Part shown: positions 1,459 to 16,771 of the stretch, piece after piece
Numbering within the stretch: the stretch's first letter is position 1
Layout: every line of letters starts with the position of its first letter
IMG/VR virus record: IMGVR_UViG_2671180609_000024
Source of the DNA: a virus
Lineage: Duplodnaviria; Heunggongvirae; Uroviricota; Caudoviricetes
DNA length: 22,105 bases
Direction: 5' to 3' (one strand)
Position numbers and translations under genes: made by a program
The notes under the pieces: model-generated
Database searches by the model: none
What the model was told of the DNA's origin: nothing
Seen by the model: only the letters and a program-made list of their open reading frames with translations

Positions 1459-2433
1459 TTACACATCATTAGTACCTTCCTTATTTTTTGACTGGGACAA
1501 ATTTGGGACCGATGGGTTCAGGATCGAGTCTATTTGCCGTGCGTGTTCGGTAAGGTGATTAGGTGCAAGGTGAGCATATCGACGAACCATTTCGATAGAC
1601 TCCCAGCCTCCCATTTCCTGTAACACTGACAACGGGACTCCGGCTTGAACCAGCCAACTTGCCCAGGTGTGTCTCAAGTCGTGAAATCTGAAATCATCAA
1701 TACCAGCCCGTCTCAGCGCCGCTTTCCAGGCTGTGTTTGCGTCATACCGCATCTTCCTTACTGTTGGCGCTTTCGTTCCGTCTGGTTTGGTACAGCTTTC
1801 CTTGTACACAAATACCCAACGGTGATGATTACCGATTTGTTTTTTCAATACGCGACATGCAGTATCATTCAGCGCAACGCCAATTGCGCGGTTTGATTTA
1901 CTCTCTTCCGGGTTTATCCATGCCACCCGGCGCTGCATATCTATTTGTTGCCATTCAAGGTTGATGATGTTCGAGCGTCTTAAGCCTGTTGCCAGTGCAA
2001 ATTCAACAACAGACTTTAATGGCTCCGGACATTCATCAATCAGCCTTTGTGCTTCATGGGGCTCCAGCCAGCGGATCCGTTTATTCTTTGGTTGAGGCAC
2101 TTTAATAATTGGTGCCTTATCGAGCATTTTCCATTCACGCTCTGCGGCTCTTAGCAGGGCCTTTATAAATGAAAGATGCGTAGCCTTCGTTGCAACGGAC
2201 GCTGGTTTTGGCGTGTATTCTGGAACAGGTTTCCCTTTTTTTCTGCATGCTTCTGCCCTGAGTTTCCAGTTTTCCTCATGACGCCGGTTCGTCATTTTCT
2301 GCATTGCTGAATAAATTTTTGATTCAGTAATGTCTCTTAGTTGCATTCCTGCGAAATGTTGAAGCCAGAATCCGATCTGCTTTCCATTGAGCCTGTTTCT
2401 CTGCGCGACGTTCGCGGCGGCGTGTTTGTGCAT
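1459..2433 (-). CDS. Tyrosine-type phage integrase, lambdoid/DLP12-like catalytic domain; the first 19 codons of the ORF are an out-of-frame reading of a lambda-N-like gene start, so the native N-terminus is probably missing
   Basis: C-terminal catalytic signature [39 protein letters not shown] (R..HxxR..Y tyrosine recombinase motifs). Adjacent to and transcribed toward the tRNA. The ORF start [19 protein letters not shown] is the +1-frame reading of ATGGATGCACAAACACGCCGCCGCGAACGTCGCGCAGAGAAACAGGCTCAATGGAAAGCAG. Confidence 0.8.
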
Positions 2434-2437
2434 CCAT
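2377..2437 (-). pseudogene. Lambda N-like antiterminator gene fragment (first 20 codons, [20 protein letters not shown]), then breakpoint
   Basis: Minus-strand sequence ATGGATGCACAAACACGCCGCCGCGAACGTCGCGCAGAGAAACAGGCTCAATGGAAAGCAG matches the lambda N start as I recall it, then diverges. The listed ORF 2324..2569 is a read-through of this fragment. Confidence 0.8.
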
Positions 2438-2592
2438 CTGGATTCTCCTGTTAGTTAGCTTTGGTTGTGTGTGGGAGTCGTAGTCCTGAACGAAAACACC
2501 CCGCAATGGCACATTGGCTGCTAATCCGGATTCGCACTTCCGGCCAATGCTTCGTTTCGTATCACACACACCAAAGCCTTCTGCTTTGAATG

Positions 2593-2607
2593 CTGCCCTT
2601 CTTCAGG
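2593..2607 (-). promoter_or_regulatory. nutL boxB-like hairpin (GCCCTGAAGAAGGGC on the minus strand)
   Basis: Plus strand reads GCCCTTCTTCAGGGC, the reverse complement of the lambda nutL boxB; it lies between the PL-like promoter and the N fragment, as in lambda. Confidence 0.75.
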
Positions 2608-2664
2608 GCTTAATTTTTAAGAGCATCACCTTCATGGTGGTTAGTGCGTCCTGCTGATGTGCTT

Positions 2665-2693
2665 GGTATCACCGCTAGTGGTATTTGTGTCAA
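2665..2693 (-). promoter_or_regulatory. Lambda PL-like promoter (-35 TTGACA, 17-bp spacer, -10 GATACC) firing toward N' and int
   Basis: Minus strand reads GATGTTGACACAAATACCACTAGCGGTGATACCAAGCACATCAGCAGG, near-identical to the lambda PL core (TTGACATAAATACCACTGGCGGTGATACT). Confidence 0.75.
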
Positions 2694-2727
2694 CATCGCC
2701 AGAGATAATTTATCACCGCAGATGGTT
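2667..2727. promoter_or_regulatory. Three lambda-type CI operator sites (OL1-, OL2-, OL3-like 17-mers)
   Basis: TATCACCGCTAGTGGTA (2667-2683), CAACATCGCCAGAGATA (2691-2707), TATCACCGCAGATGGTT (2711-2727); each within one mismatch of lambda OL1/OL2/OL3 as I recall them, with lambda-like spacing. Confidence 0.8.
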
Positions 2728-2908
2728 ATCTGTATGTTTTTTATATAGATTTATTTTTTGCAGGGTTGTGTGGCTTGGGAGGTGATCGAGAGATCAGAAT
2801 TGCGTTGTTTAGTGAGTTGCACCTATTAATTTTAAAATAAATACAATTGGTATCGATGAATTACAGTTGGTGGGCTGTTGGTGAGTAATTTTATTCAGGG
2901 TGATTTAT

Positions 2909-3352
2909 ATGGACGAATATGTTTATAGCGCAAGGCATAATGCTTTTTTCCCTGTGGATATGATTGATAAATATAAATCAGAGGGATGGGATTTATCAGA
3001 CGCTAAGGAAGTAAATCAAAATATTATCAGTGAGTTTATGGCTGAACCGCCACAAGGAAAAATCCGTATTGCCGGAGATGATGGGCTGCCTGCGTGGGCA
3101 GATATTCCTCCACCCACGCATGAAGAGCTTATTGAAATTACTGAATCAGAAAGACAGCTACTAATTAACCAGGCCAACGAATACATGAACAGTAAGCAAT
3201 GGCCCGGTAAAGCGGCTATTGGTCGTCTGAAAGGTGACGAACTGACGCAATATAATTTGTGGCTGGATTATCTGGACGCACTGGAGCTGGTCGATACTTC
3301 CGGTGCGCCAGATATTGAATGGCCTACGCCTCCGGCAGTTCAGGCCAGATGA
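2909..3352 (+). CDS. tfa: Tail fibre assembly protein (Tfa family)
   Basis: C-terminal Tfa signature LELVDTSGAPDIEWPTPP (compare lambda Tfa VDTSTAPDIEWP). Likely start is the ATG at 2909; the listed ORF begins at an upstream GTG at 2900. Confidence 0.8.
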   Translation: MDEYVYSARHNAFFPVDMIDKYKSEGWDLSDAKEVNQNIISEFMAEPPQGKIRIAGDDGLPAWADIPPPTHEELIEITESERQLLINQANEYMNSKQWPGKAAIGRLKGDELTQYNLWLDYLDALELVDTSGAPDIEWPTPPAVQAR

Positions 3353-3917
3353 CATCCGGCGCGGTGCTGGTATCTGTTGCCGTCACCGCGTCAATGTAAT
3401 CCAGCACGGCGTTAAGTCGGGTTGTTTCTGCCTGAGTCAGTTTCCGTCCGGCCTGTAACTTCAGCTGAATCAGACTAATGGAAGCCATTGCTGCATCAAT
3501 CAGTGATTGGCGCTGTGCTTCTGCCGCGTCTACTGCGGCACTGTGTTGTGCCTCAGTGTCTGTCACCCATTTCTCACCATCCCATTTATCGTATGGCGTT
3601 AACGGTGAAATCGTGACATAACCGTCTTTGATGGCACCGATATAATCCACTGTAACAGCTGCGCCATTTTCGATTGAGTAAACAGTCTCATTGCGATGGT
3701 CTTCTTCATGGCTCCATCCCTTACCTGTAAATACTGCCACTCTTCCCGGAATGTTTTCGCCAGGGTCAATACCAGTGGAACAGGCGGGCATACTTACGCC
3801 AGTATTAATATATTCATCAGACCAGCCCGTATACTCAGATGTTTCAGCATCATAATAAAAACAACGCATATCGCCCGGCACTGTAGCCAGCCCATTTTCA
3901 TCAAAAACAGGTTTCAT
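3324..3917 (-). CDS. Tail fibre assembly protein, alternative copy in inverted orientation (Tfa')
   Basis: C-terminus ...DYIDAVTATDTSTAPDVIWPELPEA carries the same Tfa signature; convergent with the plus-strand tfa, as in Mu G / P1 C / e14 P invertible segments. Confidence 0.8.
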   Translation of the reverse strand: MKPVFDENGLATVPGDMRCFYYDAETSEYTGWSDEYINTGVSMPACSTGIDPGENIPGRVAVFTGKGWSHEEDHRNETVYSIENGAAVTVDYIGAIKDGYVTISPLTPYDKWDGEKWVTDTEAQHSAAVDAAEAQRQSLIDAAMASISLIQLKLQAGRKLTQAETTRLNAVLDYIDAVTATDTSTAPDVIWPELPEA

Positions 3918-4414
3918 TATTTAGCCCTCACCAGAAAGTTAAATGCAATATTTCGCGGTCTGACTGCAACAAAATTCACACCATCACCCACAGAGTTACT
4001 GGTGAAATTAAATCGTGAAAATCCTGGCTGATTTCCGGCGATGCCATCATGAAAGTTAATTGCGTGTCCCGCACCTTCGCCTATATTCCCGGCAAACTGA
4101 GAAAAGTTTGTAGCTGCCTGCCAGCTTAATAATTCGCGACCACCGTCTGCACCTCGCCCGTCATCCCAGATACGAATGAAATCACCGCGGGCTTCAGGTA
4201 ATACCAGCGAAGGAAACACTTTCGCCAGCACAGGATAATCAGTGGCAGAGAATTTCGCGCCGTTGAACTTCAAAAACACCATACAGGACCAGCTGTCGAT
4301 TACAGTATTTGGCATTGCAGCGGACGGCCAGAAGAACGGAACGCCAATAGCTGGAGCACCTTCTCTCAAACCAACGTTTATGAAAATGCAGAAATAACGA
4401 GCAAATGGCATCAT
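3917..4414 (-). pseudogene. Tail fibre C-terminal variable-segment fragment (Stf'-like); no constant N-terminal tail-fibre part in the window
   Basis: Gly/Asn/Phe-rich ORF immediately upstream of, and coupled to, tfa' (3917 overlap); its 5' end contains the recombinase crossover-like site. By position it is the alternative variable exon of an invertible tail-fibre gene. Confidence 0.6.
4361..4386. promoter_or_regulatory. Candidate Hin/Gin/Pin-type crossover site (hix/gix/pix-like 26-mer)
   Basis: TTCTCTCAAACCAACGTTTATGAAAA matches hixL (TTCTTGAAAACCAAGGTTTTTGATAA) at about 19 of 26 positions; about 55 bp upstream of the invertase start, where crossover sites lie in known systems. Confidence 0.5.
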
Positions 4415-4440
4415 TCCTGCTTTTGTCAGGGAGATCTACC

Positions 4441-4995
4441 ATGCTTATTGGCTATGTACGTGTGTCAACAAATGACCAGAACACAGATCTACAACGTAAT
4501 GCGCTGAACTGTGCAGGATGCGAGCTGATTTTTGAAGACAAGATAAGCGGTACAAAGTCCGAAAGGCCGGGACTGAAAAAACTGCTCAGGACATTATCGG
4601 CAGGTGACACTCTGGTTGTCTGGAAACTGGATCGGCTGGGGCGCAGTATGCGGCATCTGGTCATTCTGGTTGAGGAGTTGCGCGAACGTGGCGTTAATTT
4701 TCGCAGCCTGACGGATGCTATTGATACCAGTACCCCAATGGGGCGCTTTTTCTTTCATGTGATGGGGGCCCTGGCTGAAATGGAACGAGAACTGATTGTT
4801 GAACGAACAAAAGCTGGACTGGAAGCTGCTCGCGCACAGGGACGAATTGGTGGACGTCGTCCCAAACTTACACCAGAACAATGGGCGCAGGCCGGACGAT
4901 TAATTGCAGCAGGAATTCCTCGCCAGAAGGTAGCGATCATCTATGATGTTGGTGTATCGACACTGTATAAGAAGTTTCCGGCCGGAGATAAATGA
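4441..4995 (+). CDS. pin: Serine-type DNA invertase, Pin/Hin/Gin/Cin family
   Basis: MLIGYVRVSTNDQNTDLQRNAL... resolvase/invertase catalytic domain with the active-site Ser in YVRVST, plus a C-terminal HTH. SD GGGAG 7 nt upstream of the ATG at 4441; the listed ORF begins 12 codons upstream. Confidence 0.9.
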   Translation: MLIGYVRVSTNDQNTDLQRNALNCAGCELIFEDKISGTKSERPGLKKLLRTLSAGDTLVVWKLDRLGRSMRHLVILVEELRERGVNFRSLTDAIDTSTPMGRFFFHVMGALAEMERELIVERTKAGLEAARAQGRIGGRRPKLTPEQWAQAGRLIAAGIPRQKVAIIYDVGVSTLYKKFPAGDK

Positions 4996-5052
4996 AACCG
5001 TAGCACGTCGTATGCAAGATCGTGCTGCGGTTTATGCTTACCACTTGAAGAT

Positions 5053-5922
<870 letters not shown>

Positions 5923-6067: not shown

Positions 6068-6649
6068 CTTTATCAATGACTTATCTCCCGACTTCCCGTC
6101 TTGCTTTTCCTAAACAGAACAATCGTAGAATATTCTTGAAGGGTTAGATCGTCACTGTTTTCTGTTCGATACTGTGACATTCAGCACTTGATTCGCTATG
6201 GATCTGACAGGAAGGTTTTGAGCGAAAATCTGCAGTTATTCAGTCGTTTTCTTATCGGTCACCATTATTCTTTTAGACATTGATCCTACAAAGCTGCCGC
6301 AAAGTTGGTGGTGGGAACTGAAGTTGCGTAGAGAAGGGGTCAATACCCGGAGGCAAACATGGGCTGGCAAAAGTGTAGCGGTATTAGGCGCAGCTATTTA
6401 GCCTAGTTATGTTTTATGAAAACTTGATATCATATAAGTGTCTTACTTATTGGCTGTAAATAAGTTTTTCCTAAGGAATTGTTTCTTGAGTATCATTTGT
6501 AACTGTAACGGAATTTATAATCCTTTGCTTTATTGTTACGGTATTTTTTATCACACCCTATTTTTAGTGGTTTTTTATACTGAAGTTTGGCAAAGTGAAC
6601 TTTATATACATATACTTCATCCTGGTTTCAGTTAAATTGGGGGGATGAT

Positions 6650-8193: not shown

Positions 8194-8355
8194 TCTCAAC
8201 TTCCTCAAACGTCCGTATTAGTCCATAAAATCTCTGATTTATAACATTTTTTATTCTTTTAAGTCCATAGTAGTCCGTAACCATCCAGTAGAATCCGGTA
8301 CTGAATGTGTATAGGATTGTGTATATGTTCCTGTTCGGTCTGGATTCCTATACAC

Positions 8356-9537
8356 ATGCCTTTAAACGATATGCAGATTCGCCGCGCTAAGCCTGAAGCT
8401 AAAGCCTATACATTTGGAGATGGGCTAGGGTTGTCATTACTTATAGAACCTAATGGAAGCAAGAGTTGGCGGTTCCGCTATCGCTATGCCGGCAAACCCA
8501 AAATGATCTCGCTTGGTGTTTACCCAACGATCACCCTTGCCGATGCTCGTTCCCGTCGTGATGAAGCTCGAAAACTTGTGGCAGAAGGAAAGAACCCTAG
8601 TGAGGTTCGAAAAGAGCAAAAGCTAGCTATGCAAACAGAGTCAGAGAACGCCTTCGAAAAGATAGCCAGAGAGTGGCATCAACTTAAATCTGCTAAATGG
8701 TCGGCGGGATATGCATCAGACATCATGGAAGCGTTTAAGAACGACATTTTTCCTTATGTCGGAACAAGGCCTGTGGGAGAGATTAAACCGCTAGAGCTGC
8801 TGAACGTTCTGCGTAAAATTGAGAAACGTGGTGCGTTGGAGAAAATGCGCAAAGTGCGGCAGCGTTGCTCCGAAGTGTTTCGCTACGCAATTGCAACGGG
8901 TAGGGCGGAGTACAATCCTGCGGCTGATCTCTCCAGCGCTCTCGAAGTACACCAATCCAATCATTTCCCATTCCTAAAAGCTGATGAGATACCTGATTTT
9001 CTACGTGCCTTAGAGGGTTACTCCGGGAGTAAGCTTGTCCAGATAGCCACGAAATTACTGATGATTACGGGTGTGAGAACCATCGAATTACGCGCGGCAT
9101 TATGGCAAGAATTTGATCTGGATAACGCTATTTGGGAAATTCCTGCTGAAAGGATGAAAATGCGTAGGCCACATCTTGTGCCCTTATCATCTCAAGCGGT
9201 AGATTTACTCAATGAACTCAAGATCATGACAGGGAACTATCGTTATGTTTTTCCAGGGCGGAACGATCCGAATAGGCCAATGAGCGAAGCGAGTATAAAT
9301 CAAGCCATTAAGCGTATTGGGTATGGAGGAAAAGTCACTGGACATGGTTTTCGTCATACCCTTTCTACAATCCTGCATGAGCAAGGTTTTGAGAGTGCTT
9401 GGATTGAAATCCAGTTGGCTCATGTAGATAAAAATTCTATTAGGGGGACTTATAACCATGCTCAATATTTTAGTGGAAGGAAGTCTATGATGGACTGGTA
9501 CAGTAATTTGATATTTGAAAGACTAAAAAGGAGTTAA
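8356..9537 (+). CDS. int: P4-type tyrosine integrase (N-terminal arm-binding domain + catalytic domain)
   Basis: N-terminus MPLNDMQIRRAKPEAKAYTFGDGLGLSLLIEPNGSKSWRFRYRY is the classic P4/CP4-type integrase start; C-terminal HGFRHT ... Y catalytic motifs. Immediately follows the tRNA-derived repeat and reads away from it. Confidence 0.92.
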   Translation: MPLNDMQIRRAKPEAKAYTFGDGLGLSLLIEPNGSKSWRFRYRYAGKPKMISLGVYPTITLADARSRRDEARKLVAEGKNPSEVRKEQKLAMQTESENAFEKIAREWHQLKSAKWSAGYASDIMEAFKNDIFPYVGTRPVGEIKPLELLNVLRKIEKRGALEKMRKVRQRCSEVFRYAIATGRAEYNPAADLSSALEVHQSNHFPFLKADEIPDFLRALEGYSGSKLVQIATKLLMITGVRTIELRAALWQEFDLDNAIWEIPAERMKMRRPHLVPLSSQAVDLLNELKIMTGNYRYVFPGRNDPNRPMSEASINQAIKRIGYGGKVTGHGFRHTLSTILHEQGFESAWIEIQLAHVDKNSIRGTYNHAQYFSGRKSMMDWYSNLIFERLKRS

Positions 9538-9540
9538 TTT

Positions 9541-9957
9541 GTGTCTCAACCACTTTCGGAAATATTGACATGGGATGATGAACAATGGGAGGTATTTGTC
9601 CATGATTGGCTTATTGTCTGTAAATCAGATGATTACCCGTGGAGCGAACGTTTGGGAGGAGCTGGAGATAAAGGTAGAGACGTTGTTGGATATAAATCGG
9701 ATCCTAACGTAGAAGGTTATTCTTGGGATAATTATCAATGCAAACTGTACAAAAAAAGTTTAGGGTTCTCTGATGTTGTAGTTGAGTTTGGAAAACTTAT
9801 CTATTTTACTCTGAATGGTGATTATCCCATCCCTCAGAAGTACTTTTTTGTGGCACCCTATGATTTATCTACTACATTTTCTAATTTATTGAAAAATAAA
9901 AACGAGCTTAAAAAAGCAGTCCTTGATTCATGGGATTCAGCAATTTCAAAAAAATAA
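9541..9957 (+). CDS. Cargo gene 1: small protein with a PD-(D/E)xK (Mrr-like) nuclease motif; possibly the N-terminal part of a longer protein (see findings)
   Basis: GTG start 7 nt after SD AAGGAG and 3 nt after the int stop. Motifs GGAGDKGRDVVGY and, about 20 aa later, YQCKLYKK (D ... QxK) look like a restriction-endonuclease-like core. Very AT-rich. Confidence 0.6.
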   Translation: MSQPLSEILTWDDEQWEVFVHDWLIVCKSDDYPWSERLGGAGDKGRDVVGYKSDPNVEGYSWDNYQCKLYKKSLGFSDVVVEFGKLIYFTLNGDYPIPQKYFFVAPYDLSTTFSNLLKNKNELKKAVLDSWDSAISKK

Positions 9958-10547
9958 CTAAAAAGATTGATATTCCATTAGATGATGAAATAAAAAAATA
10001 TATTGAGGATTTTGATTTTAGTATTTTTTACTCTCTACCCTTATCATTGATTTTAAATGATATTGCAAATACACACCTTTATTTTAAGTACTTTAACGAG
10101 CTGTATGTCGTGAGAATCCCTCCAAATGAAATTCCAACATACAATTCAAAAAAAGAGTCTGTATATGTTAATGCACTGCTTCAAGCCTATTCAGAGCATG
10201 GAAATAAAACTTATAGTTCTTTCTTAGAGCTTGATGATCCATACAGACGACACTTTAATAATAGTAGAAATGATTTTTATTTTGCATCTTCGCTTGAGGT
10301 TTTTGTCCGCGAAGTATTTAAAGATGATGTATTCAAAGCATTGAAATGTTACATTTCATCTTCAATTGAACCCGTCTTTTATGAAGACCATAATTATGCA
10401 TTTATTAGGTGTAATGCAGTCTTGAAGCAGGCTGTTCTGACACCAATTGCACATTCAGTACTATCAAAAATATGTGAAGCAAATGATAAAAAAGGAATAT
10501 GCCATCATTTGGTTAATGATGGTGAAGTAATTTGGACGGTGAGATAA
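9930..10547 (+). CDS. Cargo gene 2: hypothetical protein (205 aa as listed); may be the C-terminal part of gene 1 joined by a shift in an A7 run
   Basis: ORF overlaps gene 1 by 28 nt in another frame; both frames pass through the A7 homopolymer at 9948-9954. No domain recognised by eye. Confidence 0.5.
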   Translation: MGFSNFKKITKKIDIPLDDEIKKYIEDFDFSIFYSLPLSLILNDIANTHLYFKYFNELYVVRIPPNEIPTYNSKKESVYVNALLQAYSEHGNKTYSSFLELDDPYRRHFNNSRNDFYFASSLEVFVREVFKDDVFKALKCYISSSIEPVFYEDHNYAFIRCNAVLKQAVLTPIAHSVLSKICEANDKKGICHHLVNDGEVIWTVR

Positions 10548-11005
10548 TGGTTAGAATTTATAATTCAAGTTTAGAAGTGGCATGTCGAATGGCGAAAGTG
10601 CTCGTCGCTATTTATCCTTCTTCATTAAGCCTTGAACGGCTTATTTGTTTTGATTTTATTTTAGTAAATCTTAAGGATTTTTTACCTGAAGAGATTAGTC
10701 TTCATCCTCCAATACCCCGTAGAGATGCTCAGTTAGCCCTAAAACGAGAGATTGTTTTAGAATCATTGGCTTTGTTGCAAGGCTATGAACTAGCCTCAAA
10801 AATTTATACACATCGTGGTTTTGTATATAAAGCTTCTGAAAAAACATATGCATTTACAAATTCTCTACATAATGAATATGTTGCGCAGATGGAGCATAAT
10901 ATAAATTTGGTGGTTAAGTTATATAGTGATATTCCTGATGAGCAGTTGCAATCAATTATAAAAAATAAAATTGGCAAATATGATATGGAATTTAATTATG
11001 AATGA
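10547..11005 (+). CDS. Cargo gene 3: hypothetical protein (about 152 aa)
   Basis: ATG overlaps the gene-2 stop (TAATG at 10545-10549); its stop overlaps the next gene's start. Same AT-rich composition. Confidence 0.55.
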   Translation: MVRIYNSSLEVACRMAKVLVAIYPSSLSLERLICFDFILVNLKDFLPEEISLHPPIPRRDAQLALKREIVLESLALLQGYELASKIYTHRGFVYKASEKTYAFTNSLHNEYVAQMEHNINLVVKLYSDIPDEQLQSIIKNKIGKYDMEFNYE

Positions 11006-11630
11006 CAATTTTTTTACGTTCAGAAAAATAAAGGTAACCGGATTCAATAAATTAGATGCTATAATTGAATTTGGTTCTAAATTGACTATTTTATATGGTG
11101 GTTCTGACTCTGGAAAAACATACATATATTATTTGATTCGATATTTATTAGGGAGTGAAAAACTAAAAAATAAAGATATCGATCATGCTCAAGGTTATGA
11201 TTTAGCCTATCTGGAATTTAATTTTCAAGGTAGGGTAATGACAATTGAGAGGTCTCTTCAGGATAGCGCCCATTACAGATTATATGATTCGAGCATTGAA
11301 AATGTTAGTGAAGCTAATCTGTTGATGGTTTTTTCCAAAAGTGCTTCGTCTAAAAAGAGTTTTTCATCATACTTTTATGGTAGGTTGAATTTCAAAGAGG
11401 CTAAAGTAAGAACAAACTTAAGTAATACTCTTCATAAATTTAATCTTAATAATGTTTTTGAATTTTTTTGTATTGATGAATTAAGAGTGTTAACTGAGAA
11501 GTCGTTAATTCTTTCTGATATTCCTAGCGAGGAGACAAAAAGAAAGTCTGAATTTAAATTCCTTTTAACTCAGAGAGATGATACTAACTCCTTAGCAGAA
11601 AAACCAAATAAAAAAGCAAGATATTTTTAA
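10998..11630 (+). CDS. Cargo gene 4: N-terminal head of an SMC/Rad50/RecN-like ABC ATPase (Walker A)
   Basis: FRKIKVTGFNKLDAIIEFGSKLTILYGGSDSGKTYIYYLIRYLLG is the canonical SMC-like N-terminal strand-loop-Walker A arrangement (GxxxxGKT). The ORF ends at a TAA inside a T5/A7 tract and the next ORF continues in the same frame. Confidence 0.65.
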   Translation: MNDNFFTFRKIKVTGFNKLDAIIEFGSKLTILYGGSDSGKTYIYYLIRYLLGSEKLKNKDIDHAQGYDLAYLEFNFQGRVMTIERSLQDSAHYRLYDSSIENVSEANLLMVFSKSASSKKSFSSYFYGRLNFKEAKVRTNLSNTLHKFNLNNVFEFFCIDELRVLTEKSLILSDIPSEETKRKSEFKFLLTQRDDTNSLAEKPNKKARYF

Positions 11631-11660
11631 AAAAATCAAATTGCAAATATTTATGAGGAA

Positions 11661-12251
11661 TTGAAAGCGCAATTAATTTATCCTGAATATGATCAAGTCA
11701 TTGTTTCAAGAGAACTTGAGAAAGTAGAGCAAGATATTGAATCATCGAAAGATATATTGAAAGGTATTGTTGATGCACTTGATGATAAGAAGCAATTATT
11801 AAAAGAGTTAAGTGATGAATTATATTCAATCAGTGACAGGGAAAAATACTTATCATTACTCATTGAAAGATTTAGTCTTCTTAAAGACCAATACTTTATA
11901 GATCTACAAAGAATAGATGTTGTATCACAGGCGAATTTCTATTTAAATAATTTTGCAGATATTTATTGTGAGTTCTGTAATACACCGCAAAAAAAAGAAA
12001 ATGAAATATCATATGATGATTGTTTTTTGTCGTGTAATGCAGAAAAATTGAAAATCAAAAGCCAGCTGAAAGGATTAATTGAATCAATCGGATCTAATGT
12101 TCGCGAACATGAATTAATTATGTTAAGAAAAAATGATGTTAATGAAATTTATCAATCAGAAAAAAGTGATTTTAAGACGTTAGAAGATAAAAATATAAAA
12201 CAATACATTCATCTCTTGAATCACTTTATGAATATAAAGACAATCTTTTAA
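11661..12251 (+). CDS. Cargo gene 5: coiled-coil segment of the SMC/Rad50-like ATPase with a Cys4 cluster (CxxC-x14-CxxxC); probably not independently translated
   Basis: Heptad-rich sequence (EKVEQDIESSKDILKGIVDALDDKKQLLKELSDELYSI...), cysteines in YCEFCNTPQ...DDCFLSCN. Same frame as gene 4, separated by a single TAA; the listed start is a TTG with no convincing SD. Confidence 0.5.
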   Translation: MKAQLIYPEYDQVIVSRELEKVEQDIESSKDILKGIVDALDDKKQLLKELSDELYSISDREKYLSLLIERFSLLKDQYFIDLQRIDVVSQANFYLNNFADIYCEFCNTPQKKENEISYDDCFLSCNAEKLKIKSQLKGLIESIGSNVREHELIMLRKNDVNEIYQSEKSDFKTLEDKNIKQYIHLLNHFMNIKTIF

Positions 12252-12817
12252 TGGATCACACAAAACATAGCATTCTATCTTCATTACAAGATAAAGAAGA
12301 TGATGTTGACGAACTTAAATACTCCGCCGAGGACTTTGACTCCTTAACAGTAGCTGATTTGTATGATATAGAAATAGCGATGCAAGACTTTTTGAATGAT
12401 ATAAATTTTGAAAATTCTAAAGATAACAAAGTGCGATTTGACGAAGATACATATGACTTTAATATCAATGGGAAACGCCGAGGAATGTTTGGTAAAGGTA
12501 CCCGTGCAGTAATGCATGCTATATTTACCATTTGCTTTGCGGAATTTTTATCAAGAAAAGGGAATCCATTCATTGGATTTGTTGTGCTTGATAGTCCATT
12601 AGTGACGCACTTTGATAAAGATAGAGGGGGTTCTCTATCGGATGTTAATAGCGTCAGTCTCAGTGATTCATTTTATCACGCATTAATCAAAAGGGACTAT
12701 AATTTCCAGATTGTAATTCTTGAGAATAAAGGTCCGACGTTCCAAATAAAAATTAATGATGCAAATAAAATCCATAACTTAAATAAGAATGGAAGCTCTG
12801 GTTTTTATCCTGTTTAA
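12251..12817 (+). CDS. Cargo gene 6: C-terminal head of the SMC/Rad50-like ABC ATPase (signature-like region, Walker B/D-loop, H-loop)
   Basis: FGKGTRAVMHAIFTICFAEFL followed by PFIGFVVLDSPLVTHFD (hydrophobic strand + D, Walker B-like) and a downstream His (FYHAL). ATG overlaps the gene-5 stop (TAATG). Confidence 0.6.
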   Translation: MDHTKHSILSSLQDKEDDVDELKYSAEDFDSLTVADLYDIEIAMQDFLNDINFENSKDNKVRFDEDTYDFNINGKRRGMFGKGTRAVMHAIFTICFAEFLSRKGNPFIGFVVLDSPLVTHFDKDRGGSLSDVNSVSLSDSFYHALIKRDYNFQIVILENKGPTFQIKINDANKIHNLNKNGSSGFYPV

Positions 12818-13504: not shown

Positions 13505-14056
13505 TTACTCCTGCATGCCGTTAATGTAATCCAGACGTTGCTGAAAGCGCAGTTGTTGTGCAGGGGTGTAAGAGCTCTGGCAATCACGAACCATCATGGG
13601 GTCAGGCATCACACCGGATTCATCCAGAATCATACGATAATCCCCGGCAATTTCAGGCGGTGTTATTGCCAGCTGGCGAACCAGAGCATTGCGTAATATA
13701 CGGGACGCAACGTCAACCCCTCCGCGCCCCTTCAGGAACGGAGCCAGTGCAGATGTCAGGGCTGCTCCATTCGCCTGCATAAAATTGCTGAGAGCGTCTT
13801 CTGTGCAGGCCTCCATCAGTTGATGCTGCGAGTAAATGCATTCGCGCGCAGCACAGTTAATTTGCCATTTCAGCACATCCAGATGTTCCCGCTGTAATTC
13901 GAGCTGTCGAGCATAATCTGCTGGTTTTTCCATGGCAGTGAGGAGTGATTCTATCTGTTGTTCAACGGCTTTTCGGCTCTCACTATGTCCAGCCCACAGA
14001 ATACGGGCATTTCTAAAACTGATAAGCGCTTGGTCTGGAGTGACTCGGGCCATCAT
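13505..14056 (-). CDS. psu: Psu-like polarity suppression / capsid decoration protein
   Basis: Segment LDVLKWQINCAARECIYSQHQ ... LSNFMQANGAALTSALAPFLKG ... TPAQQ resembles P4 Psu as I recall it (KWQ.N.AA ... FMQ.HG.AL..ALAP.L.G ... TPAQ). Size 183 aa against 190 aa. Confidence 0.7.
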   Translation of the reverse strand: MMARVTPDQALISFRNARILWAGHSESRKAVEQQIESLLTAMEKPADYARQLELQREHLDVLKWQINCAARECIYSQHQLMEACTEDALSNFMQANGAALTSALAPFLKGRGGVDVASRILRNALVRQLAITPPEIAGDYRMILDESGVMPDPMMVRDCQSSYTPAQQLRFQQRLDYINGMQE

Positions 14057-15738: not shown

Positions 15739-15999
15739 ATGCGTAATATTTCTGTGTCTGCGCCAGCTCCTGCTGCGCCATTATTTCCTGTATCGAACCA
15801 TCATGAGCGATTTTTACGCCTGCCTGAGGTGATGCACTTATGCGGGTTGTCCCGTTCGACCGTTTACGACCTGATCAGCCGCGATGCGTTTCCGAAGCAG
15901 ATCCCGCTTGGCGGTAAAAATGTCGCCTGGGCACAGTCTGAGGTCAGCGCATGGATGGCGGACCGCATCAGCGCCCGTGGGCGGGGATGTGATGCATGA
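15739..15999 (+). CDS. AlpA/Vis-family small DNA-binding regulator (excisionase-like HTH)
   Basis: [48 protein letters not shown] matches the AlpA/Vis HTH pattern. SD AGAGGG 7 nt before the ATG. Confidence 0.8.
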
Positions 16000-16549
16000 T
16001 GATACCTGCATACATTAAATACCTTTATTCTGGCTTGCTTACTGTCGTCATTTCCAGGTATAGTTTTTCCGCTGTCGCAAAATCGGCAGCCGGAATTGGC
16101 GTTCCGTATAACTTATTGGCGACAATTGACGCCCCTTGCGTCTTTTTTTACGTCGTAGCTCAGGCACAACCATTTTCAGGGCTGTGGTGTTTATGCTTAC
16201 ACCATGGTTCTATCGAGATAATGGTAGTCCGGGCGGGGCAGCCTTCGGGCTGGCCGGTTTCCAATAAGGCCGGTTACGCCAACCCCGTTCGGGCTGCCAC
16301 CAGTGAAATTGGCGTTTCCGGTGGTAGCAATAACCGCTACTTATTGGAGGCTGCCATCATGGCTACAATCCTCACCCCGTCACACCCGCAATATGTCTTT
16401 GTGTTTGCCGCAATCCGCCGTGCTGACACTCACCCCCGCATCTGTATGCTTCGCACTGTCTCCTGCGATGAGCGTTCCGCGCGCCGTTTGCTAGTCCGAG
16501 ATTATGTACTCTCCCTTTCTGCACGGCTGCCTGCCGGGGAGGTGACGCT

Positions 16550-16771
16550 ATGAACCAGTTTGAGATTTCCTACGACGATGTTGTAAGGCTGAAACATTTA
16601 CGCAATGTGGGTGAGTATGTAACTGGCATGGCAGCCCTGCAGGACTGTTATGAAAAGCCAGCAGGTGCCCAATGCGAACAACTGGTTTCCCTCATTTATC
16701 TGATGACAGAGCAACTGGATGGAGTGGTGCAACGCTGCCATGACGACCTGATGAATGCGGAGGTGGCCTGA
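16550..16771 (+). CDS. Hypothetical small protein of the P4-like early operon (73 aa)
   Basis: SD GGGAGGTGA 4 nt before the ATG; ATGA-type overlap with the next ORF; same operon as alpha. Function unknown (positional analogue of P4 epsilon/orf151). Confidence 0.55.

Follow-up and report, generated by a model that had tools for sequence, protein, structure and literature searches.

Does the GC-rich, hairpin-rich DNA in front of this primase operon hold an RNA-based immunity system of the kind known from satellite phage P4, or is it simply the coding sequence of the 185-aa protein with which it is annotated? The original prediction, made from the sequence of the window (the whole stretch of DNA analyzed here, 22,105 nucleotides in length), had pointed to two direct repeats flanking a complementary sequence, and had proposed that this triplet is analogous to seqA, seqB, and seqC, the sites through which the CI RNA of P4 acts. 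The same prediction had treated the open reading frame (ORF) that covers the region as dubious. Both parts of that picture bear on how the locus should be read, and the features of the immunity region described below all lie on the plus strand.

Genomic setting

Sequence comparison finds the window unchanged in many E. coli O157:H7 chromosomes. For this identical O157:H7 stretch, PGAP lists a prophage gene set of int, delta, psu, sid, vis/alpA, and an alpha primase-helicase, in the P4 arrangement; the full order is integrase, a variable cargo block, delta/psu/sid (minus strand), AlpA/Vis, the 185-aa ORF, two small ORFs (one of them DUF5375 by Pfam), and the alpha-type primase-helicase. The P4-like status is also backed by the Pfam AlpA and DUF5375 matches and by DNA similarity to P4. 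Judged from these comparisons, the region is part of a P4-like satellite prophage in the E. coli O157:H7 chromosome. The element is of a kind already known: it belongs to two curated Rfam families that standard models detect, corresponds to an antisense-RNA switch that is among the best studied, and comes from a much-sequenced bacterial lineage. The region's predicted location, between a Vis-like gene and the alpha operon, was right: it follows a Vis/AlpA-family helix-turn-helix gene at 15739-15999, the homolog of P4 orf88/vis (Pfam Phage_AlpA, E = 1.2e-19; so annotated by PGAP, and aligning with P4 ORF88), and stands at the head of the alpha (primase) operon.

Several features of the wider neighborhood may be recorded here. 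A block of six plus-strand ORFs (9541-12817), parts of which PGAP labels as "ABC-three component system" proteins and an AAA ATPase, is flanked by the P4-type integrase (8305-9537) and by psu (13505-14056, minus strand); the int–psu position is an anti-phage hotspot in P4-like satellites (PMC9122126). A tRNA-Thr (CGU) gene at 1369-1444, which the P4-like integrase does not adjoin, is followed by a degraded lambdoid prophage (~1459-5900) with frameshifted replication genes, tail-fibre genes, the pinE invertase, and a GIY-YIG protein. The satellite prophage may itself be defective in O157, and the switch described below could then be vestigial. A literature search returned no paper on this O157 locus.

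Two structured RNAs

A covariance-model search of Rfam, suggested as a check alongside the original prediction, placed two RNAs exactly at the region, a C4/CI RNA and an isrK/seqA leader. The C4 antisense RNA family (RF01695) matches at 16217-16304 with 84.0 bits against a threshold of 45 (E = 1.7e-15), spanning model positions 1-87 of 87 without non-canonical pairs, and its fold is a long outer stem round two hairpins. The isrK family (RF01394) matches at 16071-16148 with 71.9 bits against a threshold of 50 (E = 7e-14), across model positions 1-77 of 77, and comprises two 5′ hairpins, seqA, and an intrinsic terminator. Both RNAs are members of these families. IsrK has been equated with the P4 seqA element, and C4 with CI RNA (PMC3632133, PMC4825925); authentic P4 (X51522) gives both Rfam matches in the same order and spacing, with a C4 score of 74.9 bits.

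Folding, the other check suggested at the outset, gave the CI-like RNA a minimum free energy (MFE) of -50.2 kcal/mol, far more stable than its shuffles (z = -5.28; 0 of 200 equally stable). The Rfam consensus structure places seqB in a 12-nt loop of hairpin 2, while the thermodynamic MFE structure closes part of this loop through extra U-A/U-G pairs and leaves 6 nt unpaired. Of the hairpin elements named beforehand, the CCGG...CCGG arms are where they were said to be (16254-16257 and 16270-16273), and the GCAGCC-TTCG-GGCTG hairpin exists, with its position shifted by one base (16238-16252 instead of 16239-16253).

In the leader fold, seqA (16112-16119) sits in a single-stranded stretch between the two 5′ hairpins and the terminator. 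The terminator itself (16128-16148; GACGC-CCCTT-GCGTC followed by a run of seven T residues) is kept in P4 and was found independently of the isrK model by a terminator scan; its hairpin (16128-16142) begins 8 nt past seqA, and hairpin and tail correspond to the 3′ hairpin and U-tail of the isrK model. Its P4 counterpart is presumably the terminator that Briani called "t1" in 2000. The t1 and t4 terminators of P4, and processing by RNase P and PNPase, are reportedly treated in that work and in reports by Forti from 1995 and 2002. An equilibrium anti-terminator, disrupted when seqA is occupied, was considered as a link between seqA and the terminator and was rejected: with the seqA 8-mer forced to be unpaired, 62 of 69 leaders kept the same predicted terminator.

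Upstream of the leader lies a putative P_LE-like promoter (16035-16064), with a -35 element TTGCTT (16035-16040), an 18-nt spacer, and a -10 element TATAGT (16059-16064) that aligns column for column with the annotated "-10" of P4 record X02534. The isrK model starts 7 nt downstream of this putative -10. A simple consensus promoter scan did not list the P_LE-like promoter, because its -35 matches at only three of six positions, and the assignment is therefore made by homology only. The candidate promoter lies upstream of seqA, inside the eta frame, and by homology with P4 would be constitutive. The spacer that separates the CI RNA from the leader terminator (16149-16216) is the least conserved part of the region and is 39 nt shorter than that of P4 (gaps of 5 and 34 nt); the eta frame is nonetheless kept.

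Three complementary sites

The repeats and their complement are exactly where the original prediction had put them, with the 9-mer ACTTATTGG at 16111-16119 and 16339-16347 and the complement CCAATAAG at 16261-16268. The true complementary core is the 8-mer pair CTTATTGG/CCAATAAG, the leading A of the 9-mer being opposite G and unpaired. In the resulting anatomy, seqA, the upstream target of the CI loop, is CTTATTGG at 16112-16119, an 8-bp perfect complement of seqB. The seqB loop, UUUCCAAUAAGG (16258-16269), corresponds to the 12 loop nucleotides of hairpin 2 in the C4 model, and its core at 16261-16268 is the specificity determinant. The downstream target, seqC (CTTATTGGAGG, 16340-16350), forms an 11-bp duplex with the loop, including two G-U pairs and spanning GGAGG; it thereby overlaps the Shine-Dalgarno sequence of the kil gene (GGAGG, 16346-16350). 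Within the transcript of ~1 kb, the best duplex partners of the loop are seqC (-12.7 kcal/mol) and seqA (-9.7), with the next at -7.3. The hexamer CCAAUAAG lies in the exposed loop of the CI-like RNA, and its complement recurs just before an intrinsic terminator and over a ribosome-binding site.

Aligned with the immunity region of P4, the window at 15990-16570 shows 82% column identity, and each of the three short sites occupies the columns of its P4 counterpart: seqA reads TTCACAGG in P4 and CTTATTGG here, seqB reads CCTGTGAA in P4 and CCAATAAG here, and seqC again reads TTCACAGG in P4 and CTTATTGG here (the full seqC of P4 being TTCACAGGAGG). Four of the eight core positions differ from P4, each time with compensating changes across the three sites.

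A third copy of ACTTATTGG occurs in the window at 6445-6453 (plus strand), in AT-rich intergenic DNA upstream of an AraC-family gene. This copy is probably due to chance, since it has neither Shine-Dalgarno nor terminator context.

Covariation across relatives

Relatives were collected by a search, in a single genome of each species, for the conserved CI stem (an exact 21-nt match), with the loop left free. The scan gave at least 120 loci, mostly from Enterobacterales with some from Ralstonia and Cupriavidus, and 107 elements were usable among the matches listed. These 107 carry at least 44 distinct loop sequences on a near-invariant CI scaffold, in a sample that is biased to close scaffolds by its selection on the stem and whose members are phylogenetically related. 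Among the matches listed, the complement of an element's own loop recurs ~117-123 nt upstream and ~80 nt downstream. Perfect complements of at least 7 nt on both sides are found for the own loop in 32 of 44 types, as against 21 of 1792 combinations with swapped loops, again among the matches listed; the other 12 types fall short of a 7-nt perfect complement on at least one side, some of them with G-U pairs or single mismatches.

Formal covariation was scored, with 500 shuffles, on 48 distinct rows from the matches listed, anchored and aligned without gaps. Between seqA and seqB, 90% of cells are paired and the score is 0.654, compared with 0.187 in shuffles; between seqB and seqC, the figures are 86%, 0.509, and 0.165, and in neither case was the observed score reached by any of the 500 shuffles. 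Shifting the register by one, two, or three columns lowers the paired fraction in these 48 rows to 31-60% of cells, and covariation collapses. Each of the six variable loop positions uses three to five standard pair types, with both seqA and seqC, among the matches listed. Although the members are related, linkage alone cannot create complementarity in dozens of types. The covariation analysis across P4-like elements that had been proposed finds both seqA and seqC tracking seqB over 44 loop types among the matches listed, and the suggested analogy with the seqA/seqB/seqC triplet of P4 is borne out by the pair of Rfam families, by the shared P4 columns, and by this covariation.

Two further observations concern the loop. 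The window's own loop is the most frequent, present in 19 of 107 elements among the matches listed and found there in Phytobacter, Kosakonia, Enterobacter, Ewingella, Kluyvera, Yersinia, Serratia, Edwardsiella, and Raoultella. The hexamer that varies also spans precisely two eta-frame codons, and the distance from seqA to seqC is 76 codons, with the same frame offset at both.

The overlapping reading frame

The 185-aa ORF (15996-16553) does cover the region, as the original prediction had said, but it is not dubious: it is a homolog of P4 eta whose frame is kept open, running through the promoter, the leader, the CI RNA, and seqC and ending as kil. The long ORF of P4 has 199 aa, begins at a triple ATG upstream of P_LE, and ends where the old "cI" CDS ends; the two proteins are 57% identical. 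At its start, the stop of vis/alpA and the eta-like start codon overlap as ATGA (15996-15999) with a second ATG next to it, where P4 has ATGATGATG; this arrangement agrees with the report that eta of P4 is translationally coupled to the alpA homolog.

Nested in the eta frame is a kil-like ORF of 64 aa (16359-16553), whose ATG (16359) lies 8 nt past GGAGG and in frame with the longer ORF. It belongs to the Icd-like cell-division inhibitor family: the model NF033153 (phage_ICD_like, NCBIfam; E = 1.2e-18) matches kil aa 12-58, or aa 133-179 of the long ORF, inside kil only. A kil ORF of 63-65 aa is present in 65 of 94 elements among the matches listed, and upstream of the kil ATG its frame is open for ~113 codons in 68 of the 94, versus 12 and 4 for the other frames. 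Column entropy by codon position in the matches listed is 0.94/0.83/1.35 in kil and 0.68/0.71/0.62 in the 48 codons over the CI RNA. The third-position excess is thus a property of kil and is missing over the CI RNA, from which it follows that the frame is kept open there while the amino acids are not conserved; by this measure, only the kil part of the 185-aa ORF appears to be conserved at the amino-acid level. Pfam PF10554 (Phage_ASH, E = 4.8e-30) matches ORF aa 22-132 (16059-16392), which is the stretch of promoter, leader, CI RNA, and seqC, and codon-position periodicity is absent from it across 59 homologs among the matches listed. For that reason, the conservation captured by Phage_ASH looks to be driven by the RNA, together with the need for an open frame, and not by a protein domain.

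In P4 itself, according to PMC10111431 (citing Forti et al. 1999), a transcript from the internal promoter is quickly terminated through CI/seqA interactions, and Kil is made on read-through; full-length Eta arises only from the upstream late promoter, coupled to the alpA homolog, and eta translation prevents termination as part of the same switch. The original prediction had held that a translated and conserved ORF would speak against an RNA element. This does not follow, because the RNA elements and the ORF coexist, and P4 eta belongs to the very switch in question.

The kil stretch also contains a putative Rho-dependent terminator. The Rho-dependent terminator t_imm of P4 was cloned as positions 8365-8209 of X51522 (PMC3177188), a fragment that corresponds to 2097-2253 of the P4 locus analyzed here and starts at the kil ATG. 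Its candidate equivalent in the window (16359-16515) is 79.6% identical without gaps and contains 36% C and 20% G, the top C/G ratio of the region, a composition that would be expected of a Rho-utilization (rut) region.

Alternative explanations

One alternative account of the locus is that it merely encodes a 185-aa protein (Pfam "Ash", annotated "Icd-like"), the repeats and hairpins being incidental and no RNA regulator being present. The ORF is indeed intact and annotated by PGAP, its Phage_ASH match at aa 22-132 is strong, and its frame is the one that stays open in most homologs (68 of 94, against 12 and 4, among the matches listed). Yet the third-position excess that marks kil is missing from the 48 CI RNA codons in the matches listed, two structural models of Rfam match at full length, the Icd-like protein model matches the kil part only, and compensatory changes tie together three sites up to 228 nt apart. 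In P4, moreover, the ORF (eta) has a function alongside the RNA elements (PMC10111431), and an ORF does not exclude an RNA. As an exclusive explanation, the protein is contradicted by the missing codon periodicity and the three-site compensation, and we consider it extremely improbable. That the three short matches are functionless chance repeats in GC-rich structured DNA is an idea that draws on the shortness of the core (8 nt) and on the extra 9-mer copy at 6445. The window holds three copies of the 9-mer against 0.19 expected, however, with 0 of 100 shuffles reaching three; the sites of interest lie at the exact positions of P4's experimentally defined sites, and complementarity is kept in dozens of specificity types among the matches listed. 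Shuffle statistics and covariation together reject chance, to which we attach virtually no probability.

An RNA mechanism different from that of P4 could also be envisaged. The leader, a full-length IsrK-family member, might act as in Gifsy-1, where a short leader in trans remodels a read-through transcript and activates translation of a small ORF with toxic effect; the C4-like RNA would then be secondary. The layout parallels isrK-orf45-anrP, including a processed stable RNA (STnc1160) downstream of IsrK (PMC4825925), and a short leader bearing seqA could at least titrate the CI RNA. Against this, the element is 69-82% identical to P4 over the whole immunity region and lies within a P4-type satellite, and the covariation of the C4 loop with seqA and seqC is the signature of CI-directed repression. 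As the principal mechanism, action of this kind is very unlikely, although IsrK-type and P4-type mechanisms are not mutually exclusive.

Proposed mechanism and implications

The reading we favor, at a probability of roughly 0.93, is that a P4-like satellite prophage has its immunity (lysogeny-maintenance) region here, most likely working as it does in P4. Transcription, RNA processing, CI-dependent termination, Rho dependence, and eta-mediated readthrough are carried over from P4 genetics in what follows. The constitutive promoter, with its -10 at 16059-16064, would start a transcript at ~16071, and processing of this transcript would yield a stable, structured CI-like RNA of ~70-80 nt from within 16217-16304, whose 12-nt loop would expose the CCAAUAAG of seqB. 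Pairing of the loop with seqA (16112-16119) on nascent transcripts would favor an early stop at the terminator (16128-16148), and pairing with seqC (16340-16350) would cover the kil ribosome-binding site and block kil translation. The untranslated, C-rich kil RNA would then expose the t_imm-like Rho-dependent terminator, leading to termination within kil; with the terminator exposed in this way, the replication operon for alpha (primase/helicase) would stay silent. Transcripts from a late promoter upstream of vis, by contrast, would be translated continuously through eta (15996-16553), coupled to vis by ATGA, and since ribosomes on eta would mask both the target sites and the rut region, late transcription may be insensitive to immunity.

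A more speculative joint reading, which we regard as unlikely, is that the loop hexamer constitutes a programmable address code, with at least 44 specificities, and that the seqA leader, short and abundant, also acts as a trans sponge for the CI RNA, much as IsrK works in trans in Salmonella, so that the whole forms an RNA–RNA titration circuit. In such a code, the CI-loop hexamer must be mirrored at two target sites, and this also inside eta; if the reading were true, the titration circuit could fix the level at which derepression, or cross-talk among co-resident satellites, begins. Apart from this reading, the list of immunity specificities could predict mutual exclusion among P4-like satellites, and the comparative data show cleanly, in nature, how three sites evolve by mutual compensation beneath an overlapping reading frame. 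The locus also has a value for annotation, as the PGAP "Icd-like" CDS of 185 aa and the Pfam "Ash" family hide two RNA genes, a putative promoter, and a terminator.

Comparison with known systems

The relationship to IsrK of Gifsy-1 (RF01394) is one of family membership and partial layout: the leader matches the IsrK family at full length, and a stable RNA (putative here) and a small ORF follow it in both settings (PMC4825925). IsrK of Gifsy-1, however, is a trans activator of orf45/anrP translation in a lambdoid prophage (PMC4825925). For the leader in the window, by contrast, both the context and the covariation point to a role as the target (seqA) of the CI RNA.

The c4 RNA of P1 and P7, the founder of the Rfam C4 family (RF01695), acts with icd-ant and shares its RNA fold family with the window. 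Its loop pairs with two sites on the same transcript, one of them at the ribosome-binding site of an Icd-like gene; the resulting block of Icd-like translation silences downstream genes, and differences in specificity lead to heteroimmunity (PMC12197685). The gene downstream in P1/P7 is an antirepressor (ant), whereas in the window it is the satellite replication operon, and the upstream target in the window, unlike that in P1/P7, sits in an IsrK-type leader, coupled there to an intrinsic terminator. Stx1a and Stx2a phages, phiP27, and phage 2H10 (LC567819, AJ298298, LR595862, and others) show 70-82% identity to the window at 16218-16377 only. In these phages, the stretch, which comprises the CI RNA, seqC, and the start of kil, adjoins or lies inside genes annotated as antirepressors. 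These stretches, ~70% identical in the Stx phages and phiP27, are P1-type c4-icd-ant modules, so that one RNA scaffold controls different cargo in helpers or in other prophages of the same hosts.

The closest likeness is to P4 itself. The element order and spacing (P_LE, putative here; seqA; cI RNA with seqB; seqC; kil/eta; t_imm, likewise putative here) are common to both, as are the terminator past seqA, the position of seqC over the kil Shine-Dalgarno sequence, the nesting of kil in eta, the C-rich t_imm-like kil region, the ATGATG eta start overlapping the vis stop, and a satellite genome with int, delta, psu, sid, vis, and alpha. The differences are a spacer 39 nt shorter here, an eta of 185 instead of 199 aa, a kil of 64 instead of 65 aa, and the specificity hexamer of the loop, which is CCAAUAAG here and CCUGUGAA in P4; P4 carries CCUGUGAA/UUCACAGG at the aligned columns where the window has its own hexamer and complement. 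Retronphage phiR73 likewise differs from P4 in immunity specificity. As the six variable loop bases differ from those of P4, the element should, judged from its sequence, be a heteroimmune relative of P4.
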